Shown here piece by piece: positions 1-19,159 of a stretch of 64,000 nt of DNA. The position numbers and the translations under genes are program-made. The DNA lies in IMG/VR virus record IMGVR_UViG_3300021387_000484, positions 36,089-100,088 of that record; one strand, written 5' to 3'. How positions within the stretch are numbered: position 1 is the stretch's first letter; each line of letters opens with the position of its first letter. The notes below the pieces were generated by a model, which did no database searches, was not told the origin of the DNA, and saw only the letters and a program-made list of their open reading frames with translations. The stretch is from a virus (lineage: Duplodnaviria; Caudoviricetes).

Positions 1-3000
1 TTTTTTCCTCGGTTTTTGCCTCAGAAAAGTCCTTGCCTTTGGCCCAGCCGCCTGCGCCGCCCAGTGCCTTCCCGTTCTCATCCAGCGGGATATGCGCACC
101 CTTCTCAGTGGTTATCCACTCAGCAGGCTCCTCGTCGCAATGTACTATGTCCCTCGCTACAATGATTGTAACATTGCCGCAGACAGAGTCAAGTAATTTC
201 TCGGAAATATATTTGTTTCCGCATAACCACAACTTGCTCATCAAGCCATTTCGGGTCATAGGCGCATGTTTTTTCGCTTTGTAGGCTTTTCCTCCGATTA
301 CGCCGTCACTGCGGTTCGGTCTCCCGATGATGAGCACCGGTATCGTTTCAATCCCGGCTTTGTACGCGGCTACGGCCCTGTGCCGCCCTTCCTGTCCCAT
401 GTCCTTGTAGTTCAGGTATGGAAGGTCGAACTTCACGCCCTTCTTCATCTGCTCGGCATACTTGTCCGTGGTCTTTTCATCAACTGCACCCATGGTGCTT
501 TCCATAGTGCCGTTGTGGAAAATCTCATAGGCGCACCGCTCAAGGTACTCCCTCGGAGACATCTCTACAATCCTGCCTTTGCCGTTCTCAAGGTATTCGT
601 CTCCGAAAGAATTGCTGGTCTTGTCAAGCGTGAAGCCCTCATAATCCTCCTGCTTGGCGTCTTTAAGCTTGTTTGGCTTATAGGCCGCGACCTGACGCTT
701 GTGTTCTTGCTCTTTCATCTTGTCGAGCTTTTCCGACGCCTCATCCCTAGCTTTTCTCTGCTTATGCCAATCTTCTTCGACCTTTGATAATTCTTCTTTG
801 AGCCTTTCCCCTTTCTTGGTGTATATCCTCGGCTTTTTCCCTATCAGTGACTGGTACTCATCTTCCTCGTCCCACTCATCTTTGGGCTTCGGCCTGCTCT
901 CAGCCTTTATGGCTTCTTCAAGTACTTCGCGCTTAGCCCACAGCTCATCGGCTTTTTCCCATGATTCTTTATGGGCGGCGGCTACGTCCTTAAACGCTTT
1001 CGTATCCCTGTATGAATGTACCGGCAAAAAGTCGGTTAACTTCCTTTTCCCGACTTCTGGCGTGGGACGGTGTTCAATGGTGGGTTCGCTCTTCGCATGA
1101 GAAAAGTCCTCTCCCTCAAGGTCGCCGCCGTTCACCGCCTTGCCTTCTTCATTCAGGAGTATATGCGTGCCGTTTACGGTTATCCAATCCTCGTCATAAT
1201 CACCGATGTCAAAGTCATCAATGAGTTCATCAATGGGTTCGTCTTCAAAAGAAGCATCAGTCCTGTTGCGCCTGCGGATGTCCTCAAGCCTGCTAAGCTT
1301 TGACTCAAGCTGTAAATCAAACTCGCCTTCGCTGTCCGCTTTAGTCTCCTGAACGTCATTGGTCAATACCCAGCCGACGACCTTGCCGTCCTGTATGGCT
1401 TCAACCTTACCGTCTTTTGCCGGGCGGAAAGTGATAATCCCTTCTTCAGCAGAATCCTTGTTCTGCCTGCCGTCAAGGATGATGGTCTTGGTCCTGTTCA
1501 GGATAATAGTGTAGGAAATCTCATCAGGATTTGTGGCGTATTCGGTGTTATACCTTATCGCATCGTACCCCATCGCCGCCGCATATACGCCGATGTTCAT
1601 GAACTTTTGCCTGATAGCCATGGAAGACTTGTCCAGCTGGTCCAGCGCTTCGGCAAGTTTCCCGTCTGCCTTTTCTTTTATGCCCTTGCCGATAGCTTCC
1701 AGTTTGTCCAGCGTACTATCGTCAAAGGATTCTGCGGCCTCTGCCATTTCGCTAAATGACACACCGCTTCCAGCCGGGTCCGTATTATACTTTGTGTATG
1801 TATACGCCTTTTCGCCGTACTGCTCCTTTACCTTGTCAAGTTCCCCGTCTATGCAGTTCTGGCTAATCTTCCTTCTCTTCTCAACGCTCATTGTCCCCCA
1901 GTACTGACTCTCGGCCTCTTTATAGTCGACAATCTTTGCACTCGGGTCCAGCGTCATTGTCTCGGTATAGGAAACAGGGCTCTTTGTACCTTCCTGCTTA
2001 AAGCTGTCTTCGTACTTATCATGGTAGCCCTGTATTTCTTTTTTGACACCGTCGGTCATCTGCCCCGTATAGCTTGAGGCTGTATACATGCCCTGCCCCA
2101 GAGCCTGCCCGCCGTAACACTCCACGTAAAACTCGCCGCCGTACAGGGCGTCCCTGTAGGCATCCAGTGTCTTCTGGTCAGACGCCATGTATATACGTTG
2201 TGCTACCATGCCGCTTGCCTTCACGGCTTCGTCAAACTCTTTCTGAGATACAACCTTGGGAAGACCGTCGAACCCCTGCTTATGGATAACGGTAACTATA
2301 TCAGGGTCACCCCTGTAGTTCTTTGAAATATCCTTTCCGTTTACGACCTTGTGGCCACCCGGCTTTGATGCAGTGCTCTTAGGTGCCCGCTTCTGGCTCT
2401 TCGCTTCCTTGAACGACTTGCCTTTTAGCTTTCCGCCGCTCATGGCCTCGCCGTTCTCGTTCAACAGGACGTGCGTGCCTTTGATGGTCACCCAGTCATC
2501 GTCGTCTTCTCTGGCAGGGGATTGATAATCGTCAGTATAAACGTGCCCGATGGCGCGTCCTTCCCTTATGGCGTCTATCTTCCCGTTCTTGCCGGGCCTG
2601 AATGTAATGGTGCCCCTATCCTCCTCATCCTTGTGGTTTCTGCTGTCTTTGATGATGGTCTTTGTACGATTGAGAATGACTGTGTAGGTGGCATGTTCCT
2701 TGTCACTTCCAACCCTGACCGCATCATACCCTAGCGCGGCGGCGTAAGCGTTGATGTCACCAAACCGTGCCCGTAACTTCATGGAACGTTCTTTAAGCAG
2801 GTCTTCATACCTGTCCAATAGGTCATAGGTTATATCATCAATCATTTCTGCCATGTCTTCACCTATGGCAGATTCGGCCTTGCGGCTTTCGCGTTCAGAG
2901 ACTGCCGGGTCACCGCACATGCTCCTCGCATACAAAGCCGCATCGGGTCCGTATTCTTCCTCAATCTCACGGATGCCATCCGCGACCATGCCCTTATCAA

Positions 3001-4726
3001 AGTCAATGCTTTTAGAGTTAAACTTTCCGAACCACTTTTCCCCAATGTCTTTGAAGTCTGCTATCTTTGCGCCGGGGGCAAGCGTCATGTCCTCAATGAC
3101 ATAATACGGGTCAGTTGCGGCATGCCGTCTTGCATAGCCGTTCACTTCGGTTTCAACCTCTTCTGTGCCCTTTCCCGTGTAATCAGTGACAGTGTACATG
3201 CCTTTTCCGAACAGTGCCCCGCCTTCGCATTCCACGTACCAATCGCCGTTGTAGAGTGCGTCCTGATACGCGTCAAGGACTTCCTGAGAAGAAGCTGAAT
3301 AGGCTCTCTTCGCAACGACGCCGCTCTCTTTCACCGCCCTGTCAAACTCTTCGTCTGAGACGACCTGAGGCAAGCCGTCAAAGCCCTGCGCACGCATGAC
3401 AGACTTGATATCACCGTCACCATCGTATGAGTCAAGGATGTTATTTCCACTTACCGGCCTTCGTGTTTTTGGCTCTTCCCTTTTGGGAGTATTCCCGGCT
3501 TCTCCTTCCTCAGCCCCTTTCATCAGCTCAGCAAAAGGGTCGAACTCGTCGGGGTCGCCGCCTTTCATCGCATTGACCACATGTGGGTTTCCCTTATCCG
3601 GTTCACCCTCTTCATTGATATGAACTTTATGTCCATTCTTCGTAGTTATCCAGCGGTCTTCACCAGCGTCTCTTCGCCCTCTGCCGTCACCGTCTTTCCG
3701 AAGCGTGTCTGCGAACTGGCCCTCATCACCGTTTATCCATGCAACCTTTGACAGCGGTATCTTCTTGGAGTAGACCTTGCCGCCTTCACCGCCCGCGTAC
3801 TGCTGTGCCTGAATCCTGCTTGTTGAGACGAACACGCCCTGCCGAATCGGATATGAGGAATAGACCGTAATCTTGCCGGTCTTCTGCGCCTTTTCTGCAT
3901 CAGCCTTTGAAAAATCACCCCATGCAAAGCTGTCACCGTCGTCTTCGGTCAAAACCTCATCCCACGTCTTTATGTCGGATGGCTTCCTGATACCGACGTG
4001 ATAATCGTCAAGCATCGGATTGTTTTCCTGAATAATCTTATACTGCGCGACCTTCTCTTTTGGCTGGGTCCTCAGCTCGTGCTCAAGTTGTATTCTTTCT
4101 CTCTGAGCCTTGGCTTCTTTTTCCGCTTTTCCCCTGACCTGCCGCTCTCTGCTTTTTCTGGAAGCCTCTTCCTGCTTCTGCTTTTTGTGGGCAAGCCATT
4201 CTTCCTTCGTGCCCTGCCAGTCGGCCTTCAGCATCTCAATCTGGGTCTTTATCTTCGACTTTGCCATCAGGCCCTTGGTGCCTTCAAGCTCTGTCTCAAG
4301 CTGTTTTATCTTGGCCTCTTTATCTGGGCCCGATATCCCGCTACCGGCGGTTTTGTCAACCATCGACTCAATGACTTTCGAGTTACCTTTGTCGGGCACG
4401 CCCTCTTCATTTATATGGACTTTGTGATTGTTCTTGGTCGTTACCCAGCGGCCCTCTTCGTCTGCGCCATCTTTTCTCTGTCCGCTGTATTCAGCCCACA
4501 TGGCTTCGACCTTCTCAACATCGTCACAGTCTCTGGGCTTTACCCCCTCACTGTTCTTCCACTGAGCAAAGTCCCTCTCGGAGTCGTCGTCCTCGAACTT
4601 GTCAAGGTTCTCTTCCAGCCACTCATCGTAGGCATTGTCCATATGGACGGAGTCGGCTCTTTTGTCTTCAGCACGGTAAGCGAACACGAATGCCATTACC
4701 GCCTTATTGAATTCCTGCGTGGTCAT
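1..4726 (-). CDS. Giant (>1575 aa, 3'-truncated by window edge) modular head-region polyprotein: ART-like, 2x PARP/ART-like, ParB/Srx-like domains, each behind a WxTxxGxH module
   Basis: Manual translation from ATG at 4726 (RBS AAGGAGG just upstream) stays open to position 2. Motifs: ITVYSS..FVSTS..DEG; GFDGLP..G.GMY..GYDA..Y..ILNRT (twice); QEGRHRA..AG...IPV. Absent from the ORF track because no stop lies inside the window. Confidence 0.9.
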   Translation of the reverse strand, partial: MTTQEFNKAVMAFVFAYRAEDKRADSVHMDNAYDEWLEENLDKFEDDDSERDFAQWKNSEGVKPRDCDDVEKVEAMWAEYSGQRKDGADEEGRWVTTKNNHKVHINEEGVPDKGNSKVIESMVDKTAGSGISGPDKEAKIKQLETELEGTKGLMAKSKIKTQIEMLKADWQGTKEEWLAHKKQKQEEASRKSRERQVRGKAEKEAKAQRERIQLEHELRTQPKEKVAQYKIIQENNPMLDDYHVGIRKPSDIKTWDEVLTEDDGDSFAWGDFSKADAEKAQKTGKITVYSSYPIRQGVFVSTSRIQAQQYAGGEGGKVYSKKIPLSKVAWINGDEGQFADTLRKDGDGRGRRDAGEDRWITTKNGHKVHINEEGEPDKGNPHVVNAMKGGDPDEFDPFAELMKGAEEGEAGNTPKREEPKTRRPVSGNNILDSYDGDGDIKSVMRAQGFDGLPQVVSDEEFDRAVKESGVVAKRAYSASSQEVLDAYQDALYNGDWYVECEGGALFGKGMYTVTDYTGKGTEEVETEVNGYARRHAATDPYYVIEDMTLAPGAKIADFKDIGEKWFGKFNSKSIDFDKGMVADGIREIEEEYGPDAALYARSMCGDPAVSERESRKAESAIGEDMAEMIDDITYDLLDRYEDLLKERSMKLRARFGDINAYAAALGYDAVRVGSDKEHATYTVILNRTKTIIKDSRNHKDEEDRGTITFRPGKNGKIDAIREGRAIGHVYTDDYQSPAREDDDDWVTIKGTHVLLNENGEAMSGGKLKGKSFKEAKSQKRAPKSTASKPGGHKVVNGKDISKNYRGDPDIVTVIHKQGFDGLPKVVSQKEFDEAVKASGMVAQRIYMASDQKTLDAYRDALYGGEFYVECYGGQALGQGMYTASSYTGQMTDGVKKEIQGYHDKYEDSFKQEGTKSPVSYTETMTLDPSAKIVDYKEAESQYWGTMSVEKRRKISQNCIDGELDKVKEQYGEKAYTYTKYNTDPAGSGVSFSEMAEAAESFDDSTLDKLEAIGKGIKEKADGKLAEALDQLDKSSMAIRQKFMNIGVYAAAMGYDAIRYNTEYATNPDEISYTIILNRTKTIILDGRQNKDSAEEGIITFRPAKDGKVEAIQDGKVVGWVLTNDVQETKADSEGEFDLQLESKLSRLEDIRRRNRTDASFEDEPIDELIDDFDIGDYDEDWITVNGTHILLNEEGKAVNGGDLEGEDFSHAKSEPTIEHRPTPEVGKRKLTDFLPVHSYRDTKAFKDVAAAHKESWEKADELWAKREVLEEAIKAESRPKPKDEWDEEDEYQSLIGKKPRIYTKKGERLKEELSKVEEDWHKQRKARDEASEKLDKMKEQEHKRQVAAYKPNKLKDAKQEDYEGFTLDKTSNSFGDEYLENGKGRIVEMSPREYLERCAYEIFHNGTMESTMGAVDEKTTDKYAEQMKKGVKFDLPYLNYKDMGQEGRHRAVAAYKAGIETIPVLIIGRPNRSDGVIGGKAYKAKKHAPMTRNGLMSKLWLCGNKYISEKLLDSVCGNVTIIVARDIVHCDEEPAEWITTEKGAHIPLDENGKALGGAGGWAKGKDFSEAKTEEK
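165..192 (-). promoter_or_regulatory. Sigma-A-like promoter embedded in the coding linker of the giant ORF
   Basis: TTGACT-16nt-TACAAT with extended -10 TG. Confidence 0.5.
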
Positions 4727-4807
4727 CCGCGCCTCCTTTTGCCAAACAACTGACAGGTATCTGTACAAATAAAAATCAGCCCTGTGACAGGCCGATTTTC
4801 CCCATAA

Positions 4808-5629: not shown

Positions 5630-6817
5630 TCACGAAGCTTTTTCCCCTTTTTTCTTCTTCTGCGCTTCGGGCAAACTCTTGAGCTCTTCTATTCGTTTCG
5701 GGTCGTATTTGTAATTGGCATTGTCTAGGAACATTTGATAAAGCTCTTGATTGTGTATTGTGAGTCCTTTCCCACCACCACCGCTGGCAATAAGAACCGG
5801 GGGTTCACCCTTCTTCATGTTTGCATACAGCTTCACATCGTCGAAATCTTTGGCGATTTCAGGAAGTATTTTAGATATCTCTTTATGTGTGTGTATCAAA
5901 AGGCCATCTTTAACGCTTCTCTCTCTTGCGGTATTTGCTATAATGGCATCTTCTATTGGCTTAAACACATAAACGCCATTAACAGTATGCCCCGCCTCTT
6001 TGGCCTCTTTGATTTTCTTCCTCATTTTCTCGACGCTTCCGTCGCCTGTACCATCTACCAAGACATTATAGCCATTCTCCTGTGCTATTTTTGTAATACG
6101 CTTTGCAAGAGCGCTCGATTCTTCGTGCACCGGTGAAGGATGGTCAGGGTCATATTCTGGCATAGGCTTCTTGCAAGCATCCGGGTCAACAAGAATGCGT
6201 TCGTCTTTGCCCGGCATATTTAGGTTTTCCGCTTCGTTCTCGACAACATAAGATTTGCCGCTTGCTGGACCGCCCCCCATAAAAGTAGTGACAGGCTTCC
6301 CTTTAGCTTTCTTAACCCCTCTAAACGTATTGTCTATAATCTTGCTATGAAGGGCCTCCCTTTCTTCGGTCCATTCTCCATTGTCATTTGTGTGCATGCG
6401 CATGGTTTCGCCCGAATCGGAAGCTTTATCTTTTGGGTCGACATGCGTCACCCCATAACCGTTTTTAAATGTATGCTCTCGCTTATAACCACCTATCACT
6501 TTCGCCTTAGAAGAAACAGAACTGGACACATACTTTTTTGCACTGGACGCGCCTTTTGTGGCCTTGGACGAAGAAGAACCAGTCTCCTTTTCTGAGCCTT
6601 CACCCAAGGCTTTGAGCTGGCCTCCAATAGGCTTCTTGTTCTCATCAACCGGGATGTGATTTCCTTTGACCGTAATCCATGAATCAGGTTCTTTTTTATC
6701 CATACGCCTGTGCTTGACGTGCTTCCTGACTCTGCTTATCACATACCCATCTTCCCTGCGCTGTTTGAGGGACCGGCGTATCCGACCAAGCTTCGTATCT
6801 AAAGTTGTTCTCTTCAT
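5630..6817 (-). CDS. Zeta-toxin-like P-loop kinase with N-terminal cargo module
   Basis: GGGPASGKS Walker A, VDPD, HEESS, VLVDGT; N-terminal RMD..WITVKGNHIPVDE. Confidence 0.85.
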   Translation of the reverse strand: MKRTTLDTKLGRIRRSLKQRREDGYVISRVRKHVKHRRMDKKEPDSWITVKGNHIPVDENKKPIGGQLKALGEGSEKETGSSSSKATKGASSAKKYVSSSVSSKAKVIGGYKREHTFKNGYGVTHVDPKDKASDSGETMRMHTNDNGEWTEEREALHSKIIDNTFRGVKKAKGKPVTTFMGGGPASGKSYVVENEAENLNMPGKDERILVDPDACKKPMPEYDPDHPSPVHEESSALAKRITKIAQENGYNVLVDGTGDGSVEKMRKKIKEAKEAGHTVNGVYVFKPIEDAIIANTARERSVKDGLLIHTHKEISKILPEIAKDFDDVKLYANMKKGEPPVLIASGGGGKGLTIHNQELYQMFLDNANYKYDPKRIEELKSLPEAQKKKKGEKAS

Positions 6818-6841: not shown

Positions 6842-7375
6842 TCAAAACACGGCGTCACTGAATTCTATCTGTTTTTGCAATAACCTGTGACAGACATATA
6901 TGCTCTGGAAGTTCGGGCTGTTTAAAAGCCCCTTGTCTTTGTGATAAAACTTCATCCTGCCTGACGGGATAAGCAACTGGACCCCGTGGTCTCGAAACAG
7001 CTCCACCCGCTTCTTGCTGTCAAACAAACCATTGAAATTCATGACGAGCGCGAACGGAACATCCATTTCAAACAGCCTCTCAAAAATCGCATTCCTCTTG
7101 CTAAAAGGCGGATTACTCACCACTATGTCCCCGGCAGGCACTGAGTACTCGAAGAAGTCCTGTCCCGTGGCTATATGCCCGTATCTCACGTCAATCCCAA
7201 GTTTATTGAATGTCTGAACAAACCTGCTTTCCTCTGTATCGAAGGGGCACCATATGTTTTTGTACCCCCCCCTCAAAATGTACGGCACAATCATGTCCAC
7301 AACGTTCTGCGGGGAATAGTATTCGTCACCGTTAATACTCTGTTTGATTTGAGTTGAAATACTCTTTGTATCCAA
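6842..7375 (-). CDS. Small phage DNA amino (N6A/N4C) methyltransferase
   Basis: DEYYSP, IWCPFD, DFF, VSNPPFS catalytic motif. Confidence 0.8.
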   Translation of the reverse strand: MDTKSISTQIKQSINGDEYYSPQNVVDMIVPYILRGGYKNIWCPFDTEESRFVQTFNKLGIDVRYGHIATGQDFFEYSVPAGDIVVSNPPFSKRNAIFERLFEMDVPFALVMNFNGLFDSKKRVELFRDHGVQLLIPSGRMKFYHKDKGLLNSPNFQSIYVCHRLLQKQIEFSDAVF

Positions 7376-9687: not shown

Positions 9688-12600
9688 TTCTTGAAAGCCT
9701 CCTTGTAAGTAGCTTCCGCCGCCGCATACATATTGGGCGTTATCGCCTTGAGCAGTTCCAACTCACTCTCATGCCCGAAAGCCTTGAGCTCACAATAGTT
9801 TGCCCAATACTCTAAACATTTTGCGGACGCTCTCCCGCCCCCAGATGGGGTCAGCCAATAATCACGGCTATGACCACCGTAAAACATCAACCCACCACTG
9901 TATTCCTCTGTCAGTGCACTCACCGCATCACTGACCGCGCTGAGGTCCTGAACTATCTGCTGATGCCCCCATTCCATAAACTTTTTAAAGGCGTTGTCGC
10001 GTTCCTCGTCGTTTGCGAACCACCCATCACCGTTTGTCTTAAAACCGATGACTTTTGCCATCGCTTCAAAGTCTTCCTTTGCCCTCTTTCCACCATATGG
10101 CACAAGGTGTTCAAGGTTCATCGAAGCAGATGTTATTCTGATTTTCTGTCCGTCCATTGTGTCGTATTCTATGTCCACAGCACCGTCGTCAAGAGCATGC
10201 CCCATCTCATGGATGAATGTCTCTGCCCCTCGTATTGAACCGAAATAGACTTTTCCGTCCATTGGGTCAAAGTATGACGTTTGTCCCTCTTGCAACTTCT
10301 CGATATCCGTTTTTCTGAGGGTTTTTTCATAGACTGCCCTGACTTCATCAGGCATCGCCTTATAAGCTTCCCTCAGGCGCTGGACCTCATGCTGGCTTGC
10401 ACCGTTGAGTCCGAAATTGATATCAAAGAAATCACCTTCTACCTTCTGCCCGGACAGCATGGTCATGTTATCGCACAGGTCTCCGTCTTCAGATTCCCAG
10501 TCATTGTTGCCGCAATACCGGTAATTCCTGCCGTCCTTGCCAACTATGACGGTGCCTTCGCCGACCTCGGACAGGTCTTCTTTCTGCATGGTCACCTGTG
10601 CTTTTTCAAGGAGCGGTTTGTCTGCCTCCCAAGGGGAATCTTGGTTCCTGAAGTTCTTTGCGGCGTGCTTCCTTTGCGCCTCCTCTTTTTCCTCCTCTGA
10701 TTTAGCGGACTTGCTTATGTATGCCCGCGTTTCAGCTTCTCTGTCAAGAAAGATGTCCGTGATATCCCCGGACTTCCACGAACCGCTCTCGCCAGTCCCG
10801 TACTCGCGCCACCTTCCTGAGTCCGTCTTGATGTATCTATAGGATTCATCCCCGTCGGATGATTCAGGTACAGTGATAATCGAGCCTGTTTCTAAGGTAT
10901 CAAGCAGTTCTGCCACCTTCCTCTGGTCATCCCTGCGGGACTCGCTGGTAGATTTTTCCGCAATATCAGACAGTTCCTTGTTCAGTTTGCTCTTGGAGGG
11001 TTGGAAGAGCGGCATCTTCGTTTTTCCCACCTTTTTGGTGGTATTCTCACTTTCCGCATCCGGGAAAGACATGCCCTTCAGGTCGCCGCCGTTCTGAGCG
11101 GTCCCCTCATCGTCTATCAGGATGTGTGTCCCGTTGACGGTAATCCACTGCTCATCGTCGGCATGGATGTTCTTTCCAGTAATCGTCTGCACCAGCTTCT
11201 GGAAGCCGACCTCGAAAGGTCTGAACAGCCGCCCTGAGTGTTCTATCTCCTCAATGGCGGTAAACCTCGCCTGATGCATTTCCTCTTCGTCGCACTTTGG
11301 CGTCCCCTCATACCTGACACATAAGAACAGGTCGGGGCACAGGCCGTTCGTCTGCTTCTCGCCCTTGCCAAATGGTATCAGCTCCATGGGCGTTATGCCG
11401 AATTCTTCCTGTGTCTCACGGATGGCCGCCTGCCCCGGTGTCTCACCTTCTTCGATATGGCCGCCCGGACCGCAGATAAGGTGTTCGCCGTCGCCCGCGC
11501 CACGGACGCCTGTGAGTACCATGCCGTCCTTTATCACGTATACGCCGACTGCGCCCTGAGCGCCTGCGTCCATGCACGCCTCTTCCCTGACGCTGTCGCC
11601 GTAGGCTTTATACCCGGCCCCCGTGAAGGCTTTGTAGCGCTTGCCGTCCCTGCCGACTATCTCCTCGGTGTAAAGGTCGCTAATAGCCGGTTTTTGGCCG
11701 TCCTCGTCCTCTCTGGATGCCGTTCTGTAATCCCTTATAGAGATATCCCCCTTGCGGGTTCGGACCAGCCTAGAGCCGTGTGGCGGCCTTACAGGCACAT
11801 TGCCAAGCCATGCGCTCCTGAGTGTGTCTTCAGGTTCCTCTGTGCCGTGCCATGCTCTCTTTAAGGTGTCGTCTTCTGGCTTAACCCCAAACCACGCATT
11901 GCGCAGGGTATCAGCCGGGTCCTTCTTTACCTCGGGCTCTTCTTTTGGCTCTTCCTTGGGGGTGTTCCCAAGCCACGCGTTCCTGAGGGTGTCGCCGGGC
12001 AGGGGAGCCTTAGAGGGATTGATAATCCTCTCTGCCCCTTCCTGCTCGCCGCCCTGTGCTGTGATTCCAAGCCATGCGTTGCGCAGGGTATCCTCAGGCT
12101 CCGCGTCCTGATTCTTCTCTTCCTGTGGCTTTTCGGCCTCAGGCTTCTTTGCCGCAGGCTCCTTAGGCAGTGCCTTTGACCCTTCTGGCTTTATCATTTC
12201 AGACTTACCGGCAAGCTGTTGTTTCGCTTCATTTGCCTTTGCCTGTTCCTTGCCGCTCATATCTACCGGCAGTTTCGTGGCCGCTGGCGCCGCCGCAGGT
12301 GCGTTCCCGCCAAGGTCTGTATCCTTAGGTTTGCCGCCCTGTGCAAGCTCTGGCTTTACGCCCGCTTTCTTCGGGTCTGCCTTGGGCTGTACCTTGCCAG
12401 ACGGAACTCCGCCCATAGGGTCTTTTTCACCCGCTGGCATCCCCTCTGGCTGTTGTGCTTTTGGCTTTTCTCCGCTCTCTGGCGCGCCCTCAGCAGATGC
12501 TCCTTCAGGCGGCATCATACCCGGCATACCGCCCGGTGCTCCGCCTTCTGCGCCCGGCATACCGCCGCCCATACCCGGCATTCCTTCCATGCCCGGCATA

Positions 12601-14048
12601 CCGCCGCCCTCTGCCTGCTTCTTCATGGGGTCGTTCTCTTCCAACTCTTCCTCGGTATACTCGTCAAGCATGGTCTCGACATCGAATTCCTCGGAATCAG
12701 CAAGCTTCTTTCTGACCTCGGACGGGTCAAGGGCCTGCATCTGGACGTATACCATAGCGGTATTTGCCTTGGTGTTCTCCACCTGTGCCCGCATCTGGTC
12801 AAGGGATACTTCCTCCTGCTCAGACAAGGACCACAGTGGGTTAAATTCCACCTTTATCGGCGGGACTTCGTCTATCTCACCGGACAAAACCCCCGCCTGA
12901 AAGATGATGGAAAGAAGATACCTCAGGTTCTTCTTGAGCATCCGCTTCTGGATGCGCTCCACGTAGTTGTACCAGTTCTCAAGGTCGCCCATGCCTGTAG
13001 AGTTCATCCCCGCCGGTGACCTGCCGAACAGGATGGTCTGCGGAATGGATGTCAGTGCCGACAGGAAGTTGCATGTCGTGTCGATGACCTCGGAAACGCC
13101 CGTGAATGAAAATTGCCTGAAGCTGTAATCCTCTCCCTCGCTGTCAATGGTGATGGAGTTCAAAAGCCCCCTCGCCATGTCGATGGTCTGAAGGCGCCTC
13201 AGCACTCTGTCCTCGCCTTCTTCGGTAGCAAGCTCAGCAGACAGGTCCTTCATGGAGTAGACCGCCTGTATGGACCTGTCGAGCATCTTCGGTGCAGTGC
13301 CGTGGGCTATCTCCGCATCCCTTATCGCTTTTTTGAGACGCACGTACTCGGGCATGCCCCAAAGCTGATAATAGGAATTGGACGTGTTCTCGGGCAGTAT
13401 CCCGTTCTGGAATACAAGGCATCTGGAATCGTGCACCCTGAAATTCCCGTACTTGCTGAACACGTCATAGTATTCAGGCATCCCCAGCCTGCTACCTCTG
13501 GTCCCGAACGGGTCATCCGGGTCATAGGAGAACATAGTGCTGTAGTCTGGCTGTATCAGGGACCGGTCATACACCCGTATATCGTCTATGGACTTGATGT
13601 TCCTCCAGTCAAGGGGCTCGTCAACGCCCCTGCCGTCATTAATCATCAGAACGGCTATGGAACCTCCAAAGAGCCTTGCCCACTTGATGCAGGTCATGGC
13701 CGTCTCTTCCCAGTCCAGTTCGTCAAGGGCCTCCATGTAGAAGTCCTCTATCTCTTGGTCTTTTACGTCCTTGAGCTCAAACCCGTGCTTTATCGCCTCC
13801 TCTGCGGGAGCGTCAATGATTTTTGAAAAAAGCCCGTTCCCCTCGTAGAACATGGTCAGTTCGTCGTCGGGAATCGGCGGCTCCTGCTTGAATTCATACC
13901 GTTCCGAAGAATCTCTCGAAGTGCCGTACTTTGTGAGCAGGTTGACGTAACCGTCCATCCGGTAGGGCCTGACGACTCTGCCGGTCTGCTTCCGTATTAA
14001 ATCTGTATAGCGTCTCAGTGAGTCTATCTTTTCCTGCCTGCTTGCCAT
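9684..14048 (-). CDS. Portal protein (DUF1073-like) fused to low-complexity/repeat linker, NUDIX hydrolase and HExxH metallopeptidase
   Basis: Follows TerL; KIIDAPAEEA, WARLFGG, IPQTILFGRSPAGMNSTG..DLENWY, FNPLW; NUDIX box GGHIEEGETPGQAAIRETQEEFG; FIHEMGHALD. Confidence 0.9.
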   Translation of the reverse strand: MASRQEKIDSLRRYTDLIRKQTGRVVRPYRMDGYVNLLTKYGTSRDSSERYEFKQEPPIPDDELTMFYEGNGLFSKIIDAPAEEAIKHGFELKDVKDQEIEDFYMEALDELDWEETAMTCIKWARLFGGSIAVLMINDGRGVDEPLDWRNIKSIDDIRVYDRSLIQPDYSTMFSYDPDDPFGTRGSRLGMPEYYDVFSKYGNFRVHDSRCLVFQNGILPENTSNSYYQLWGMPEYVRLKKAIRDAEIAHGTAPKMLDRSIQAVYSMKDLSAELATEEGEDRVLRRLQTIDMARGLLNSITIDSEGEDYSFRQFSFTGVSEVIDTTCNFLSALTSIPQTILFGRSPAGMNSTGMGDLENWYNYVERIQKRMLKKNLRYLLSIIFQAGVLSGEIDEVPPIKVEFNPLWSLSEQEEVSLDQMRAQVENTKANTAMVYVQMQALDPSEVRKKLADSEEFDVETMLDEYTEEELEENDPMKKQAEGGGMPGMEGMPGMGGGMPGAEGGAPGGMPGMMPPEGASAEGAPESGEKPKAQQPEGMPAGEKDPMGGVPSGKVQPKADPKKAGVKPELAQGGKPKDTDLGGNAPAAAPAATKLPVDMSGKEQAKANEAKQQLAGKSEMIKPEGSKALPKEPAAKKPEAEKPQEEKNQDAEPEDTLRNAWLGITAQGGEQEGAERIINPSKAPLPGDTLRNAWLGNTPKEEPKEEPEVKKDPADTLRNAWFGVKPEDDTLKRAWHGTEEPEDTLRSAWLGNVPVRPPHGSRLVRTRKGDISIRDYRTASREDEDGQKPAISDLYTEEIVGRDGKRYKAFTGAGYKAYGDSVREEACMDAGAQGAVGVYVIKDGMVLTGVRGAGDGEHLICGPGGHIEEGETPGQAAIRETQEEFGITPMELIPFGKGEKQTNGLCPDLFLCVRYEGTPKCDEEEMHQARFTAIEEIEHSGRLFRPFEVGFQKLVQTITGKNIHADDEQWITVNGTHILIDDEGTAQNGGDLKGMSFPDAESENTTKKVGKTKMPLFQPSKSKLNKELSDIAEKSTSESRRDDQRKVAELLDTLETGSIITVPESSDGDESYRYIKTDSGRWREYGTGESGSWKSGDITDIFLDREAETRAYISKSAKSEEEKEEAQRKHAAKNFRNQDSPWEADKPLLEKAQVTMQKEDLSEVGEGTVIVGKDGRNYRYCGNNDWESEDGDLCDNMTMLSGQKVEGDFFDINFGLNGASQHEVQRLREAYKAMPDEVRAVYEKTLRKTDIEKLQEGQTSYFDPMDGKVYFGSIRGAETFIHEMGHALDDGAVDIEYDTMDGQKIRITSASMNLEHLVPYGGKRAKEDFEAMAKVIGFKTNGDGWFANDEERDNAFKKFMEWGHQQIVQDLSAVSDAVSALTEEYSGGLMFYGGHSRDYWLTPSGGGRASAKCLEYWANYCELKAFGHESELELLKAITPNMYAAAEATYKEAFKK
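11790..12095 (-). repeat. Five DTL[RK]xAWxG peptide repeats in portal linker
   Basis: EDTLRNAWLG, GDTLRNAWLG, ADTLRNAWFG, DDTLKRAWHG, EDTLRSAWLG. Confidence 0.85.
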
Positions 14049-14464: not shown

Positions 14465-15010
14465 TTATAACTTGGACCTTCTCTCGGCGGTCTTTCCACC
14501 CCTGCTCTTGTTGCCGCCCCTCGTGGTGCGGTTGGGGAAAGCATACTGGATAGCCGCCCTTGTACCGGAGATTTTGGATACGCTGGACTCTCTCGCCCTC
14601 TTGCCGCGTCCCTTGACATCCTTGAGGATGTTCGCGCTTGCATGCTCATCAATCTGCCTTACGACCTGATAGCCCTTCTTCCCGGCGTTCTTCACATTAG
14701 CGGACTTGACGTTCATGTTTACCTTGCCCATGCGCTTCTGCGCGCGGGCAAGTGCCTTCGGGCTCCGCATCTGCATGGCAAGGGAATGAGCCTCTTTCAT
14801 TTCGCGCCTCACCTTTGCCTGAGAAGTGTACGTTTTTGAAACAGTCTTCAGCATGCGGAAGCCCCTGCCGCCTCCGGGAGCCGACCCGCCTTTATGTCCG
14901 GGTACGCCGACGTGTCCCCAGTTGCCGCTTCCTTCACCGCCATCTTCACGCCTGCGTCTTTTCAGGCTCTTCCTTATCGTTTCCACTTTCCTGAGAGTCC
15001 TTGTTTCCAT
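14465..15010 (-). CDS. Highly basic head-region protein with GGxGSGNxGH motif
   Basis: Start METR after AGGAGG; RRED-GGEGSGNWGHVGVPGHKGGSAPGGG, K/R-rich. Confidence 0.75.
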   Translation of the reverse strand: METRTLRKVETIRKSLKRRRREDGGEGSGNWGHVGVPGHKGGSAPGGGRGFRMLKTVSKTYTSQAKVRREMKEAHSLAMQMRSPKALARAQKRMGKVNMNVKSANVKNAGKKGYQVVRQIDEHASANILKDVKGRGKRARESSVSKISGTRAAIQYAFPNRTTRGGNKSRGGKTAERRSKL

Positions 15011-15091
15011 CGCTCCTCCTTTTGTAGTATAGCGCATAAAGCGCACGTGCCAATTCAATTTCGCGCGTTTTGCCGATTTTTTTAAAACTTT

Positions 15092-17272
15092 TTACAACAT
15101 ATTTCTGAGGCTGAACGTGGGCTTCGCAAGTTCATTGAACGCATCAGAGCTGGCATCTACCATGTCATCATGCGCGCCCTGCGGAAAGCTCTCAAGCTGG
15201 TTGAAGAACATCTCATTCCAGTCCGCCGCAAGAACATACACGTTGCCGACCTGCCACTGCGCCGCAAAAGGGGTCGCCCTCTGTTCCTTGCTACCCGATA
15301 CGGGGTACGCCTTTACCGGGAACCCTGACAGCATCTTGATAAAGTTCTGCGCAAGAATCTTCCCCGCCGCGCCCGGGTCCTGAGGAATGCGAATCTTGCA
15401 CTTTAGTCCGTATTTCTTCCTGTCTGAGACAGCTGTGTTGTATATCAGCTTTTCCACTTCTGCGGCAGGCAGTCTCTTGTTGATAACGTCCATGACCACG
15501 ACCGACTTGTCTTTCCTGAGCCCCAAGAGGGCGCCAGCCGTGTAGTCGGGGTCGCCGCTCTCCTTGTCTGCCGTAGCCGCTATATCCCATGCCCGGCAGT
15601 ACAGCTCTAAATCGGATGGAAGGTCTAGGAGCACCTGAACCTGAGTCCTCTTGAAATACCTTCCTGCGGCAGACTTAATCTTCCAGTTGCCCTTTAAGAG
15701 CCGTTCGCGCTCGACCTCTGGAAGAGACTTTAAGGACGCCAGATACTGCGGGTTGACCTTTAAGAGCTCCTTATTGTCGTAGATACTCGACATGATGAAG
15801 GTCACTGACCTCGGCTCATCCTTTTCCTCTTCGGTCTTTAAGTCGAACCGTTCCCACAGCTCTTCCTTCGTATCAGCCCAGTTGATAATCCCGTCACGCC
15901 TGACGAACCACCGAATCTTCCCGCTCCGTTCTGGTATCGGATACCCTGTATCTTGGTCTATCCACCACTCGATGAACTTGGCTACCCACGAGTCCGCATC
16001 CGGGTTGCAGGTCGCCCTTATAAAAGGCTTTACGCCGCACGTGGAACGGTTACGGGACATCATGTAGAAGAATGTTGCTTCATCAAAATGAGTTAATTCA
16101 TCGAATCCTATTTCGCAAAGTTGTGAGCCCTGCCAGTCGTCGACACCGCTGTAATTCTCTATATGAGCAAAGGTCACCTTCGATATGGGGAGTCCGTCAT
16201 TATCATTGAATTCCCACGATGTGTTTACCTTCTTCATCTGAGCATTCGGTATCAAGCCGTAGATAGATTGCGCAGTGTCCCAGAGACCGCCGGGTGAGAA
16301 GACCTGTTTGAACGTTCTTCGGAAAATCGTGCAGTTGAACCCCTGTACACCCTTATACATAAGGGGTGTCAAGAGAAGCCCATGCGTGTTGTGGGTGACT
16401 ACAAAGTCCTTGGTCACATACAGCCCGTCAGGCTCGTCCACTCTGATGCACTGGCACTCCTCTTCCCCACAGGGTTTGATTGATAGGATTCTTCTATTTA
16501 GGTTTCCCCGGGTCCTGTCCTTCAGAACTGCCTTCATCCGTGGGAACAGCTCGGAATCATCCTTTGTCAGGATGTCGACCAGAAAGCCCCCTGAGGCTTC
16601 CCGCTTTATATAGGCCATGCCGCCTATCGACCAGACCAGCCACTGCATGTCTTTTGCAAGCTTTTCTGAACTGGTGTATAGCCCGCATCTGCCTTCTTCG
16701 GATATCCGCCCGCCCTTATCCATCAGTCCCTGTATGAGCGATACACGGTCTTGTGGCGGGGCGTATTTGTACCGGACAGGAATGTGCTTTGCCTTGTCCT
16801 CAACGCACTCATCCGCAAGATATGTCCCTAGGGCGTATGGTATCAATGAACCCGCCGGTCCCCTGTTTTCGAACTGAACAGCCCCGCAAAGGGGGGTTTG
16901 ATAATCTTTACCCTGAGCCAGCCCGTCGATGATGGCACTTGTGGTCATCACCTTTCCGTTTACGAACCACAGGTGGTCTTTTGTACACCTCGTCTGCGCC
17001 CCGTCCTCGAACAGCACTCTGTAGACAGCCTTTTTGCCCTGAGGGAAGGTCTGCACGACCGTGGTCTGCCTTCCCGTCGCCGATATGACCTTGTCACCGG
17101 CCTTTATGGACCCCATCGGCCTGAATCCAAACGGTGTAAGAACGGGTTCGCTAAGCGGCTGTGCCTTTCCCCCGCCCGCCGAACCGCCGAATATGCAGAT
17201 ATCAGCCTCTGTCGCAAGGAAGTCCCACTGTGGTCCCGGCTGTGGCCTAATGGTAATCTTATTCTTCGCCAT
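15092..17272 (-). CDS. terL: Terminase large subunit containing an intein
   Basis: GGSAGGGK(T) Walker A, IGFDELTHF Walker B, RATCNP, RAWDIAA, HDDMVDA nuclease motifs. Confidence 0.95.
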   Translation of the reverse strand: MAKNKITIRPQPGPQWDFLATEADICIFGGSAGGGKAQPLSEPVLTPFGFRPMGSIKAGDKVISATGRQTTVVQTFPQGKKAVYRVLFEDGAQTRCTKDHLWFVNGKVMTTSAIIDGLAQGKDYQTPLCGAVQFENRGPAGSLIPYALGTYLADECVEDKAKHIPVRYKYAPPQDRVSLIQGLMDKGGRISEEGRCGLYTSSEKLAKDMQWLVWSIGGMAYIKREASGGFLVDILTKDDSELFPRMKAVLKDRTRGNLNRRILSIKPCGEEECQCIRVDEPDGLYVTKDFVVTHNTHGLLLTPLMYKGVQGFNCTIFRRTFKQVFSPGGLWDTAQSIYGLIPNAQMKKVNTSWEFNDNDGLPISKVTFAHIENYSGVDDWQGSQLCEIGFDELTHFDEATFFYMMSRNRSTCGVKPFIRATCNPDADSWVAKFIEWWIDQDTGYPIPERSGKIRWFVRRDGIINWADTKEELWERFDLKTEEEKDEPRSVTFIMSSIYDNKELLKVNPQYLASLKSLPEVERERLLKGNWKIKSAAGRYFKRTQVQVLLDLPSDLELYCRAWDIAATADKESGDPDYTAGALLGLRKDKSVVVMDVINKRLPAAEVEKLIYNTAVSDRKKYGLKCKIRIPQDPGAAGKILAQNFIKMLSGFPVKAYPVSGSKEQRATPFAAQWQVGNVYVLAADWNEMFFNQLESFPQGAHDDMVDASSDAFNELAKPTFSLRNML
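16388..17164 (-). mobile_element. Class-3-type intein (259 aa) with degenerate LAGLIDADG, inserted in TerL Walker A
   Basis: Begins AQPL, block B TKDHLW, block F CQCI, ends VVTHN|T; LAGLIDADG motifs degraded (YLADEC, LMDKGG). Confidence 0.9.
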
Positions 17273-17792
17273 GGTATTCTTCGGCTTCTACGACCCTTGT
17301 CCCTTCTATTCTCTCCTGCCTCTTGTTGTGGGGCAGTACGATGACCACGTCCGTATCCGACTCGTTGTGTGCCTCAAGCTGTACTTCCTGCCTCTGCGTC
17401 CATACTCCGCGCTTTCTGTTGTTGAGCCAGTACATGATAGCCGTAGTATCGGGCGGCACCTGCTTGACCTTTGTCTTATGCCCGACCACTTTGGTGTTGC
17501 CATCGTCGTCAACGGCATAGACAAACTCCGTCTCCTCGGTAGTGCATCCCAGTGCCCTCTGGTACAGGCTCTTCTCTACGTTCGCGTCGGCCTTGGCTTT
17601 AGCGTCTTCTATCGCCTCCCGAAGCTCAGGAAACGTGCTCTTCCACCTGTGGAGGGTCCACCGTGCGATTCCGAAAGCCTCGGCTATCTCTTCGTCTGTA
17701 GCCCCCTTTACCGCCAATGACCATGCCCAGTCAACGTGGTACTCCGGGTTGTATTTGGATTTGTTGCCTGACCTGCCAGCGACACCTGACAT
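17259..17792 (-). CDS. terS: Terminase small subunit
   Basis: N-terminal HTH (EIAEAFGIARWTLHRW), VEKSLYQRALG, PPDTTAIMYWLNNR; overlaps terL. Confidence 0.88.
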   Translation of the reverse strand: MSGVAGRSGNKSKYNPEYHVDWAWSLAVKGATDEEIAEAFGIARWTLHRWKSTFPELREAIEDAKAKADANVEKSLYQRALGCTTEETEFVYAVDDDGNTKVVGHKTKVKQVPPDTTAIMYWLNNRKRGVWTQRQEVQLEAHNESDTDVVIVLPHNKRQERIEGTRVVEAEEYHGEE

Positions 17793-18318: not shown

Positions 18319-18319
18319 A

Positions 18320-19159
18320 TCATTTTCCCCTCTTCACCGTCTTATCCCTAAGGGCGTATGCCTCATCGTAGTCCTTTGACACGGGTGTGTTCTTATAGAA
18401 CTCTCTGAGGTTGACGTTTTTAACCTTTCCGACCCCCACGTACCGGTAAAAGACGATGCTTTCCTTTTTATCACGTTTGGGGTCCCAGCCCTGCTTCATG
18501 GCTTCTTCTTCAAAAGCCGGGTCCCACTTGCACCAGCTCACCGGTTCAAACCCGCATTTCACATAGAACTTGTGGTTGCCCTCATATGAGTCCAGCTTTA
18601 TGCCGCCGTTTTTAACGGCATGCGCAAGAAGCGTTTTTCCCGATATCAGGCCCTTTTTGCCGTCGCCCCGTCCTACACAGACGCCCACTATATCGCCGCT
18701 CTTGTCAACGGCAATAGTGCTTCCCCCGTCTGATACATGGAGCTTAGCCCCTTTATGCCAGTCCAGAAACTCCTTCTTGGTCATTCCCGTGACACGCCAT
18801 CCCTTTTCGGGGTCCTGTGACTGCTTTGCCTTGGCAAGAGTCTGGACATATTTTTGGGGGTCTGTATTTCCGAAGCGTATCTTGTCGCTCCCTTTTTCCC
18901 CGCTGGAATGATAAAAGTCCTCGGCGCCCTTGCCGGTCTTCTCCTTCAGGGCTTCCCATGCTTCTTTGGGTCCTGCGCCGTCTGGAAGGTCTATCCCGTA
19001 CTTCTTGCAAAGTCCGAACGCCAGCCTTGCGCTTGCATCCATCCTGACGGGCTTCCTCAGTGGAATGAAAAAGCCGTCCAGACGGACATAGGCCCCGGAC
19101 CTGTCCCTTTTGCAGGTGATTCCCCTCTTCTCCAGTTCACGTCTTAGTGTGCTTCTCAT
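18320..19159 (-). CDS. GNAT-like acetyltransferase with N-terminal RMD + LAFGLCKKYGIDLP module
   Basis: GKTLLAHAVKNGG..LD.Y..FYVKCGFEPV matches GNAT motif A/B spacing. Confidence 0.65.
   Translation of the reverse strand: MRSTLRRELEKRGITCKRDRSGAYVRLDGFFIPLRKPVRMDASARLAFGLCKKYGIDLPDGAGPKEAWEALKEKTGKGAEDFYHSSGEKGSDKIRFGNTDPQKYVQTLAKAKQSQDPEKGWRVTGMTKKEFLDWHKGAKLHVSDGGSTIAVDKSGDIVGVCVGRGDGKKGLISGKTLLAHAVKNGGIKLDSYEGNHKFYVKCGFEPVSWCKWDPAFEEEAMKQGWDPKRDKKESIVFYRYVGVGKVKNVNLREFYKNTPVSKDYDEAYALRDKTVKRGK

Follow-up and report, generated by a model that had tools for sequence, protein, structure and literature searches.

Arg-rich leaders, a putative Asp-ending processing site and a hairpin tag in the head-module cargo array of an uncultivated tailed phage

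The head module of the phage genome IMGVR_UViG_3300021387_000484 (Caudoviricetes; 100,088 bp) appears to apply a T4-like logic of leader and protease site, together with a widespread hairpin of head-interior proteins, to cargo of the polyvalent type, a reading to which we give somewhat better than even credence and in which the cleavage, packaging and injection steps are predicted. The window analyzed is the 64,000-nt stretch from position 36,089 to 100,088 of that record; coordinates below are in window numbering and all features lie on the minus strand. The names of homologues point to an uncultivated myophage of ~100 kb from gut Lachnospiraceae. Packaged and co-injected phage proteins are rarely predictable from sequence, and to our knowledge the selection of such proteins is not understood outside T4, P22, phiKZ and a few other phages. 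If the reading is correct, a short head-interior motif common to many uncultivated phages would permit the systematic finding of anti-defence and host-takeover effectors in metagenomes, and the hairpin would offer an engineering handle for loading proteins into capsids.

A preliminary description of this DNA had noted nine copies of the motif W-x-T-x-x-G-x-H in four head-region genes, and all nine were found. Their coordinates are given here from five residues before the Trp to 34 after it. Five copies are in a giant polyvalent cargo ORF (1..4768, which runs 703 bases past the left window edge), as follows: Trp 108 (4343..4462; 59 bits), a variant with K-V-H after the His and with R-K-D seven residues upstream; Trp 373 (3548..3667; 57 bits), with R-R-D five residues upstream; Trp 759 (2390..2509; 74 bits), with R-E-D three residues upstream; Trp 1195 (1082..1201; 70 bits), for which the nearest R-x-D is R-T-D, 23 residues upstream and beyond a leader-like helix; and Trp 1551 (14..133; 54 bits), with H-C-D five residues upstream. 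One copy is in a 395-aa zeta kinase protein (6575..6694; 55 bits), two, located by profile, are in a 693-aa protein (9128..9247 and 8225..8344) and one is in the portal fusion (11043..11162; 70 bits). A profile of the nine copies was searched against the six-frame translation of the 100,088-bp genome and recovered each of them at 54-74 bits (domain E 1e-15 to 1e-22), along with four additional hairpins left of the window in ORFs of 538, 114, 591 and 270 aa, bringing the genome total to 13. The tagged genes had been taken for a head-module cargo array, and consistent with this, all 13 hairpins are located between the portal and the DUF2213/capsid genes; outside that interval the six-frame search gave nothing above 4 bits and the remaining 70 kb has none, so that within this genome the tag is confined to the head module. 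The gene order is terminase, portal fusion, cargo, MuF, ARTs, DUF2213 and capsid protein. The large (726 aa) and small (177 aa) terminase genes (15092..17792; Pfam Terminase_6N and Terminase_6C) form the start of the head module and are outside the cargo system.

The hairpin is a mini-domain of ~36-40 aa, with a conserved stretch of ~16-40 residues and four invariant residues (Trp, Thr, Gly and His) that are conserved across very divergent phages with different portal families and divergent DNA. AF2 modeled the tag as a three-stranded meander with moderate confidence (pLDDT 71-80), and a Foldseek search with this model gave no structural match. When the tags and short tag proteins were scanned, no Pfam, NCBIfam or PHROGs model was found for the core hairpin, the leader or the Gly-rich tag (both described below); none of the Pfam models scanned, including the LPD families from the study of phage-type polyvalent proteins (Iyer, Burroughs, Anand, de Souza and Aravind 2017; PMC5512222), covers the tag, and a full-text literature search with the motif strings returned nothing relevant. 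A Hint/intein-like self-cleaving tag, in which the T-x-x-H strand would resemble intein block B, was considered and rejected based on the length of the conserved stretch, which is not that of a complete Hint domain with its nucleophile at the N-terminus and H-N at the C-terminus, and on the AF2 model, which is a meander only; the tags had no Hint or intein Pfam match at E≤10.

The giant ORF spans 1823 aa from the first TTG (4768), but its start is probably the ATG at 4726, which gives 1809 aa. Its sole match was to the function-less family phrog_13543 and it had no Pfam match; the ESM Atlas clusters nearest to its ~300-aa repeated domain were ART-PolyVal (0.90-0.91), which we treat as a lead only. 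The 395-aa cargo protein (5630..6817) is composed of an Arg-rich leader (34 bits), R-M-D, the hairpin, a Ser-rich linker and a zeta-toxin kinase (Pfam Zeta_toxin, E 1.7e-18). The 693-aa protein (7379..9460), which was recognized by the hairpin profile and had no Pfam match, has two modules, the first payload with an H-x-H-P...S-x-x-D (JAB-like) motif and the second with an R / S-x-S / E-x-E (ART-like) motif, and ends in a leader-like helix at its very C-terminus. The Atlas neighbors of its C-terminal half by structure and features were DRAT/ART clusters (TM 0.39-0.43, score 0.89), again a lead only, and an hhalign comparison of the phage's own ADPrib_exo_Tox paralogs with the ART-like segments was negative (probability 0.3). 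The portal fusion (1454 aa; 9684..14048; Pfam Phage_portal_3 E 7e-71 and NUDIX E 4e-13; phrog_15528 E 5e-187) consists of the portal, a low-complexity linker of ~300 aa with five D-T-L-R-x-A-W-x-G repeats, NUDIX, the hairpin and a C-terminal region that contains H-E-x-x-H and has a weak LPD39 match (E 0.02). Also within the array is a 177-aa methyltransferase-like ORF (6842..7375; phrog_799 'DNA methyltransferase', E 1e-25), in which profile searches identified neither leader nor tag. MuF is here a separate 304-aa gene (Phage_Mu_F) without a toxin domain, and Pfam identified no Phage_Mu_F in the tagged proteins of the window. Among the payload names proposed previously, zeta toxin and NUDIX were borne out by Pfam; the ART-, JAB- and ParB-like and HExxH names had no Pfam match at E≤1, a threshold at which ten payload segments gave nothing, and no GNAT domain was found. 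Most payload names should accordingly be read as motif-level designations.

A separate element, which the preliminary description had not split off, precedes R-x-D in the stand-alone cargo genes, namely an Arg-rich leader helix of ~22 residues. The leader profile identified nine N-terminal copies and three weaker internal or C-terminal copies, all of them in cargo genes. Its match to the C-terminal helix of the 693-aa protein had an E of 0.75, and the scaffold C-terminus went undetected at E≤50, so a likeness between the leader and the scaffold C-terminus is unsupported at this level. We consider the leader a candidate targeting signal at least as good as the hairpin. There is also a second, Gly-rich tag, which was always preceded by x-D-G-G among the copies examined. 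It is present in a small basic protein of 197 aa encoded between terminase and portal (14465..15058; 86 bits with the Gly-rich-tag profile), which carries a leader helix, R-E-D and the tag (G-S-G-N-W-G-H ... G-G-S).

The tripeptides described previously (RKD, RRD, RED, RTD, HCD, RMD, NKD, RAD and HAD) were all present. That every hairpin copy follows [R/H/N]-x-D held for eight of the nine, in which it is 3-7 residues before the Trp; the RTD of copy 4 in the giant ORF is a stretch because of its distance from the Trp. Across 217 tags in 150 database proteins, [RHN]-x-D was found ≤12 residues upstream in 88%, versus 9% of random windows and 37% of composition-matched shuffles of the same windows, making it a boundary element far above chance, with the caveat that the 88% may reflect shared descent and not function because the R-x-D subfamily is mainly one clade. 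By comparison, R-x-E before tags was depleted (2% versus 14% expected), and in head-module proteins R-x-D-G was enriched 4.2-fold and R-R-x-D 4.6-fold, but R-x-E was not enriched. R-x-D is followed by A, D or E and stands 2-8 residues from the hairpin; in the AlphaFold model it lies in coil that separates the leader helix from the hairpin. Co-occurrence of the R-x-D site with DUF2213 was also apparent, DUF2213 being found in nine of ten contigs with R-x-D tags versus three of 15 with tags lacking R-x-D, an association that comes mostly from one clade and is subject to the same caveat of shared descent. The DUF2213 matches in the R-x-D contigs were all near E 1e-35, the single divergent 'R-x-D' contig owes that status to a weak N-x-D match, and three DUF2213 phages have tags without strict R-x-D. 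The pairing of site and tag is not general, as the hairpins of phages without DUF2213 have no R-x-D.

The DUF2213 gene anticipated left of the window is present (Pfam DUF2213, E 7e-33; phrog_530 'head maturation protease', E 7e-83), and its N-domain has the T4 gp21/assemblin protease fold. The AF2 model of residues 1-200 matched T4 gp21 (5jbl) with a Foldseek probability of 1.0 and a Z of 11.7 over 141 residues (rmsd 2.9), with herpesvirus assemblins next (Z 4-6.4), and residues H74, S124 and H154 are invariant. By this modeled fold and the His/Ser/His set, we take the DUF2213 protein to be a serine prohead protease of the T4 gp21 kind that carries the scaffold as a fusion. All 101 distinct N-termini of the capsid protein have [R/H]-F-D-S, which follows ~30 variable residues, and in the scaffold an R-x-D island at residue 203, inside an unconserved linker, is kept in 120 of 120, in alignments that span only 68-100% identity; further scaffold R-x-D islands are at residues 170, 467, 8, 420 and 504. 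At the sequence level, one short site, [R/H/N]-x-D, is common to the capsid protein, the scaffold and the cargo tags. A literature search on DUF2213 and PB1-like capsid processing returned nothing useful. We infer that the phage's own head protease, which is T4-like, probably cuts at R-x-D. The known specificities of the gp21/assemblin family are after Glu, Ala or Lys, and an Asp-specific member would, if real, widen them.

We propose that ~13 internal polyvalent-type cargo proteins, encoded between the portal and the protease-scaffold/capsid genes and including ADP-ribosyltransferases, the zeta kinase, NUDIX, zincin-like peptidases and other domains, would be made of units with four parts: the Arg-rich leader helix where a gene stands alone, its place being taken in polyproteins by the end of the domain before; [R/H/N]-x-D in exposed coil; an acidic spacer with either the hairpin mini-domain or the Gly-rich G-N-W-G-H motif; and the payload. 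The DUF2213 protease would cut after the Asp of [R/H/N]-x-D, with G/S/A/D/E following, and the cut would trim the capsid protein, the scaffold, the cargo and probably the portal N-terminus. Leaders would be removed and polyprotein modules separated inside the procapsid, as with T4 capsid-targeting sequences and L/I-x-E sites. The hairpin would remain on the mature cargo as an older and more widespread element that marks head-interior proteins, and its distribution suggests that it most likely binds a common procapsid-interior partner, or itself, during assembly. Only by analogy do we assume that the cargo enters the host with the DNA.

Alternatively, R-x-D may be no protease site and, with the Arg-rich helix and the acidic run, may constitute a docking element based on charge pattern, with the scaffold, capsid interior or DNA as possible targets, the polyproteins being packaged intact. 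A basic helix and an acidic run invariably border R-x-D, the R-x-D-G of the portal may be structural because a conserved structural motif comes next, and the sections of PMC5512222 considered here describe the N4 virion RNA polymerase and several conjugative polyvalent proteins as travelling uncut. However, we judge docking to be improbable given the strict preference for Asp over Glu (the 2% of R-x-E noted above), the variable spacer to the hairpin and the modeled coil, and given that conserved copies of this tripeptide stand alone within scaffold linkers that otherwise vary, as well as ahead of the core of the mature capsid protein, a pattern to be expected of a cleavage site rather than a charge patch.

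If R-x-D is a cleavage site, the cargo's own zincin-like metallopeptidases might process it instead of DUF2213, an explanation that we find less probable still. The basic residues upstream of R-x-D presumably recall lethal-factor substrates. H-E-x-x-H is present in three array proteins (the portal C-terminus and the 538-aa and 591-aa proteins), a match to phrog_7153 'zinc-finger protease' was obtained (E 1.4e-5), ATLF (anthrax-lethal-factor-type metallopeptidase) domains occur in six of 71 tag proteins, and zincin peptidases are proposed as the processing enzymes of polyvalent proteins in those sections of PMC5512222. Conversely, the capsid protein and scaffold, both typical substrates of prohead proteases, keep the site as well, R-x-D tracks the presence of DUF2213, and the metallopeptidase assignment is motif-level, with no peptidase Pfam match in the proteins of the window.

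Beyond this genome, the hairpin profile identified 434 protein-cluster representatives at E≤1e-3 and upheld 73 of 78 IMG/VR pattern matches; in tblastn, 50,697 phage records from GenBank held no real match to the tags or to the full-length 693-aa protein. The Pfam domains in the 71 tag proteins included ADPrib_exo_Tox (15), ATLF (6), Phage_portal_3 (4) and NUDIX (3). Payloads behind database hairpins are ART, zeta-toxin, NUDIX, ATLF and deamidase, and database relatives mix ART, ATLF, NUDIX, deamidase and HD domains. Pattern scans of IMG/VR and of genome contigs supplied the genomic context; the contig scan, in which counts are among the matches listed, is biased towards Gastranaerophilales and Sulfurovum and is no census. 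Terminase_3, Phage_Mu_F, SPP1_portal, Head-tail_con and SU10_portal were among the genes near hairpin ORFs. The hairpin was found C-terminal to portals of five Pfam families (Phage_portal, SPP1_portal, Phage_portal_3, Portal_Mu and Phage_portal_2), behind DUF2213 domains (2 ORFs) and together with a MuF domain in one of 39 hairpin ORFs examined elsewhere, and in Gastranaerophilales genomes a C-terminal hairpin variant also adjoins terminase and portal genes. In phages without DUF2213 the hairpin is at the extreme N- or C-terminus or behind portals, with no R-x-D. Many hairpins of other phages are internal and without any nearby R-x-D site, which implies that cleavage is dispensable for hairpin function. 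Based on these contexts, we infer that the hairpin marks head-interior proteins in many phages and that these would be packaged.

As doubtful as processing by zincins is the idea that the hairpin acts after injection, as a host-target or DNA-binding handle or as a translocation signal through the portal/tail channel, its head-module location being where ejected proteins are encoded. Such a role would account for a hairpin that stays on the payload after the proposed cut, that precedes every polyprotein module (needless for a one-time packaging signal) and that is found at free N- or C-termini in other phages, but the hairpin is also fused to non-ejected or procapsid-only proteins, namely the portals of five families and two DUF2213 protease-scaffolds. 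That the tags have no biochemical role and are conserved junctions kept by module-shuffling recombination is very improbable, for although payloads have been shuffled to a large extent (no homologue of the 693-aa protein covers more than 48% of its length) and the tag pair in that protein shares 73% identity, Trp, Thr, Gly and His are kept at the protein level where the DNA has diverged and the predicted hairpin fold is consistent.

A broader proposition extends the head-interior reading. The Trp-Thr-Gly-His hairpin might be a portable capsid-interior address in tailed phages with at least five portal families, common to portals, protease-scaffolds, MuF proteins and ejected effectors, and in one large clade might make up, with the leader and an Asp-specific site, a modular code. 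We offer this tentatively and regard it as rather unlikely in its full extent; if true, the injected proteome of a phage would be readable from its sequence, and foreign proteins could be loaded into its virions.

The T4 internal proteins IPI-III and Alt carry an N-terminal capsid-targeting sequence with an L/I-x-E site for the gp21 prohead protease. As in T4, a short leader at the cargo N-terminus runs here up to a candidate site of three residues, the last acidic, that capsid and scaffold proteins also have, the protease fold is the same (Z 11.7 to 5jbl), and ADP-ribosyltransferases would be among the cargo. Unlike in T4, R/H/N-x-D takes the place of L/I-x-E, the predicted leader is an Arg-rich helix of ~22 residues, an extra hairpin or Gly-rich tag would stay on the product, the cargo comes as giant polyproteins and portal fusions, and the protease is fused to the scaffold. 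The MuF-type polymorphic toxins of temperate phages (Jamet et al. 2017) reportedly have variable C-terminal toxin domains and are presumed to be injected. Shared with them are head-module proteins with variable toxin-like domains, but there is here no MuF-toxin fusion and the toxin-like domains would be addressed by leader and tags.

In the sections of PMC5512222 considered here, phage-type polyvalent proteins are multi-effector polypeptides encoded beside or fused to portal/MuF genes, for which head packaging, processing into separate units and delivery together with the DNA are predicted. The array resembles them in its payload repertoire of ART, NUDIX, zincin peptidase, ParB-like and JAB-like domains (here mostly motif-level), in having at least two unrelated domains per polypeptide (portal, NUDIX and H-E-x-x-H in the portal fusion; five tagged modules in the giant ORF) and in belonging to a portal-terminase phage with cargo next to or fused with portal/MuF genes. 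The hairpin, the Gly-rich tag, the Arg-rich leader and R-x-D are not described in those sections.

The gene order of portal, MuF, DUF2213 'scaffolding/maturation protease', decoration protein and capsid protein is shared with Pbunavirus (PB1 and Pa193), whereas no cargo array, hairpin tags or polyproteins were seen in the 16-kb stretch of PB1 examined. The Pa193 homologue of DUF2213 is 9b40_G (E 8e-8), and the PB1 counterpart was identified by annotation. The Pa193 capsid protein is ordered from residue 66 (PMC11042391), and the PB1 capsid protein, also of 382 aa, has Asp64-Ser65 just before that residue, suggesting, from a comparison of Pa193 and PB1 by residue number alone, that the Pbunavirus capsid protein may be trimmed N-terminally next to an Asp.

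A profile built from the nine tag copies in the window was run on the six-frame translation of the whole genome, the window being the right-hand 64 kb of one 100,088-bp virus contig. The preliminary description had claimed nine copies of W-[IV]-T-x-x-G-x-H, and all nine were found in the genes that it named, with profile scores of 54-74 bits. The [R/H/N]-x-D tripeptides that it placed ahead of them were also present as listed, eight of them 3-7 residues before the Trp, but the R-T-D lies 23 residues off. Four further copies were recovered with the profile, in proteins of 538, 114, 591 and 270 aa, giving 13 copies in eight genes, all of the head module; in the rest of the genome, outside the interval from the portal to the DUF2213 gene, this search gave no tag match above 4 bits. 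Conservation of the tag spans ~36-40 residues, among which the Trp, Thr, His and a later Gly are invariant.

The head genes all lie on the minus strand. In order of transcription they begin with the small and large terminases, followed by a 197-aa basic protein (window 14465-15058), a 1454-aa portal fusion, the 693-aa protein, a 177-aa methyltransferase-like ORF, the 395-aa zeta-toxin protein and the giant ORF of 1823 aa, which extends out of the window. To the left of the window the order continues with the 538-aa and 114-aa proteins, a separate MuF protein of 304 aa, four paralogous ADP-ribosyltransferases (ARTs) of 382-406 aa (ADPrib_exo_Tox, E down to 3e-27), the 591-aa and 270-aa proteins, the DUF2213 protein (536 aa), a structural protein of 164 aa and the major capsid protein (PF09950; L001:3738-4817, minus strand, L001 being the locus that holds the phage's own left-of-window genes). 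Homologues bear the names of gut Lachnospiraceae or "Myoviridae sp.", and Lachnospiraceae MAGs contain prophage-like relatives. The phage group is judged abundant and uncultivated from the roughly 2000 database relatives of its capsid protein, many of which come from contigs of 90-150 kb. In the large terminase (window 15092-17272, minus strand; 726 aa) the Terminase_6N match begins at residue 364, at profile position 77, and its relatives align either in two pieces or from residue ~296 only, a pattern that fits a large insert within the ATPase domain, for instance an intein. The 177-aa ORF (window 6842-7375, minus strand) has an N-P-P-F methyltransferase motif (phrog_799, E 1e-25) and lies within the cargo array, yet has neither leader nor tag; the ORF may represent a methyltransferase that has been split or cut short.

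The stand-alone cargo genes open with a feature that the preliminary description did not mention, a conserved, Arg-rich leader helix of ~22 residues that ends in R-x-D and is followed by one of two tags, the hairpin or a Gly-rich one. Every copy that a leader profile identified in this genome lies in a cargo gene: nine are strong, and three weaker ones are internal or C-terminal. The Gly-rich tag, G-S-G-N-W/F-G-H ... G-G-S, follows the leader and x-D in the four ARTs (L001:10500-15671, minus strand) and in the 197-aa protein, and is also seen, both N-terminally and internally, in hairpin-bearing polyproteins from the database; x-D directly precedes it in every case. In an AF2 model of the module the leader is a helix, the R-x-D and an acidic run are coil, and the tag forms three short strands (pLDDT 71-80), for which Foldseek returned no similar solved structure. 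At the C-terminus of the 693-aa protein (window 7379-7480, minus strand) N-R-D-S is followed by a leader-like helix (leader profile E 0.75), as though a gene split had left the start of the next module in place.

Searched against 1.84 billion cluster representatives, the tag profile matched 434 proteins at E<=1e-3 and 95 at E<=1e-10; in many the tag sits at residues ~22-65, while others have 2-7 internal copies. The proposed enrichment of the tripeptide ahead of tags was borne out by the 217 tags from the best 150 of these proteins: [RHN]-x-D occurs within 12 residues upstream in 88%, versus 9% of random windows from the same proteins and 37% of shuffled upstream windows, and R-x-E is depleted (2% versus 14%). 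The Asp is followed by Ala, Asp or Glu and separated from the Trp by a gap of 2-8 residues. Within this genome, R-x-D-G and R-R-x-D are 4.2-fold and 4.6-fold commoner, respectively, in head-module than in the remaining proteins, and R-x-E is not enriched. Candidate sites of the same kind are found in other head proteins. Among 101 distinct homologue N-termini of the capsid protein, [R/H]-F-D-S stands directly ahead of the conserved core and is preceded by 30 variable residues. In the DUF2213-scaffold protein, [R/N]-x-D followed by G, S or A is kept at residue 203 in 120/120 homologues, as an island within an unconserved linker just past the protease domain, and further sites are kept at residues 170 and 467 (both 120/120), 8 (119), 504 (105) and 420 (104). 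Portal N-termini have a conserved [R/N]-x-D-G and then a conserved segment, and this site could equally be structural rather than a cleavage site. Several tag-bearing cargo proteins of related phages (P0014, P0017, P0030, P0039, P0041 and others) have, following an x-x-D, a peptide very similar to the conserved sequence with which the mature capsid protein begins, F-F-x-x-E-L ... Y-P-E; this may be mimicry of the capsid N-arm that offers a further route into the procapsid.

A DUF2213 gene had been predicted to the left of the window, and it is there (Pfam DUF2213, E 7e-33). Its product matched PHROG families annotated "head maturation protease" (E 7e-83) and, in the PDB, the Pa193 gp24 "scaffolding protein" (E 8e-8), and an alignment of 32 diverse DUF2213 homologues has invariant His74, Ser124 and His154. 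With an AF2 model of residues 1-200 (pLDDT 70, pTM 0.68), the first Foldseek match was T4 gp21 (5jbl; probability 1.0), to which the model aligned in VIA-align with a Z of 11.7 over 141 residues at an rmsd of 2.9, far above the next matches, the herpesvirus assemblins (Z 4-6.4). T4 gp21 cleaves after the Glu in L/I-x-E, and a relative cutting after Asp would be a modest step from that specificity. The Pa193 capsid protein, of 382 aa, is ordered from residue 66, the first modelled (PMC11042391), and in the capsid protein of Pseudomonas phage PB1 (L213:7218-7517, plus strand), also of 382 aa, Asp64-Ser65 lies immediately ahead of residue 66; this likeness, which is by residue number and length only, hints that the DUF2213-type proteases of cultured Pbunaviruses cut after Asp too.

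Tag and site go together in a clade-specific manner. Scanning IMG/VR with a degenerate DNA pattern of the hairpin core gave 78 stretches, 73 of them profile-confirmed, and [RHN]-x-D was upstream of 79% of tags neighbouring relatives of the phage's portal, DUF2213 or capsid protein, 37% of those neighbouring only its MuF or terminase relatives, and 26% of those without relatives of its head proteins. Among whole contigs of at least ~30 kb, several of those lacking R-x-D tags being 100% complete, the anticipated co-occurrence with DUF2213 (PF09979) held for 9/10 with R-x-D tags but for only 3/15 with tags lacking R-x-D. Most of the contigs with R-x-D tags belong to a single clade, so that these counts do not represent independent events.

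Compared with the R-x-D grammar, the hairpin is both older and more widespread. Among the matches listed from other phages, hairpins without any R-x-D lie 2-11 residues past the start codon, at the very end of the protein behind a Ser-rich linker, or immediately after portal domains (Phage_portal_3, Phage_portal, SPP1_portal, Portal_Mu and Phage_portal_2), and the payloads include colicin M, zeta toxin, GH108 muramidase, lipase, histidine phosphatase and ART-PolyVal. Such hairpins also occur in ORFs with DUF2213 (at least two) or MuF (at least one); in the DUF2213 protein of an IMG/VR contig of 44,998 bases (L043:429-2177, minus strand), the hairpin directly joins the protease domain to the acidic, coiled-coil scaffold part. 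Neighbouring genes encode terminases, portals (SU10 and T7 types included), MuF and capsid proteins. At least ~90 ORFs from Gastranaerophilales, Sulfurovum and other MAGs, like those at L084:707-1651 and L160:3995-4927 (both plus strand), encode proteins of ~300 aa whose exact end is the hairpin core, behind a Ser-rich linker; these are GH108 muramidases, lipases/alpha-beta hydrolases or of unknown identity. Often their genes lie in tandem pairs and adjoin those for Terminase_3, T7-type or SU10-type portals and integrases, and the loci are small prophages. The tag is a real and broad mark of head-interior proteins. Since it is common to portals and protease-scaffolds, which act in the procapsid and are not injected, a role at the assembly stage is more likely than one in the host, and could consist of binding a common interior partner or of self-association.

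The preliminary description had envisaged an Asp-specific protease that cuts tagged polyproteins into injected effectors. Both sequence and fold lend good support to the DUF2213 protease and the shared Asp-ended site, but a general tie between tag and site did not hold; we infer that the cargo would be cleaved, packaged and injected. T4 has a capsid-targeting sequence with gp21 cleavage, and the cargo array here is of the same overall kind. The same applies to phage polyvalent proteins, which, in the passages of PMC5512222 that deal with them, are beside or fused to portal or MuF and are predicted to be taken up into the head, processed and delivered by injection. The hairpin tag and the Gly-rich tag both appear undescribed, as does a third feature, the Arg-rich leader whose Asp-ended site goes with a DUF2213 protease. 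Neither tag nor the leader is covered by any Pfam, NCBIfam or PHROG annotation, GenBank phage records gave no match to the tags, and the motif strings were not found in print in a full-text literature search.

As for the payloads, only the zeta toxin and NUDIX named within the window and the four ADPrib_exo_Tox paralogs outside it stood at family level. The GNAT domain was not found, and JAB-like, ParB-like and H-E-x-x-H are assignments at the level of readable motifs only. Ten other payload segments had no Pfam match at E<=1 and none to the phage's own ARTs. In the ESM Atlas, the domain repeated in the giant ORF was nearest to ART-PolyVal clusters (0.90-0.91) and the C-terminal half of the 693-aa protein was near DRAT/ART models (TM ~0.4), both of which serve as leads only. 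The portal fusion has a long linker rich in Pro, Gly, Met and Lys between the portal domain and NUDIX, in which five tandem copies of D-T-L-R-x-A-W-x-G (window 11799-12089, minus strand; residues ~654-750) were apparent; phmmer flagged a self-match.
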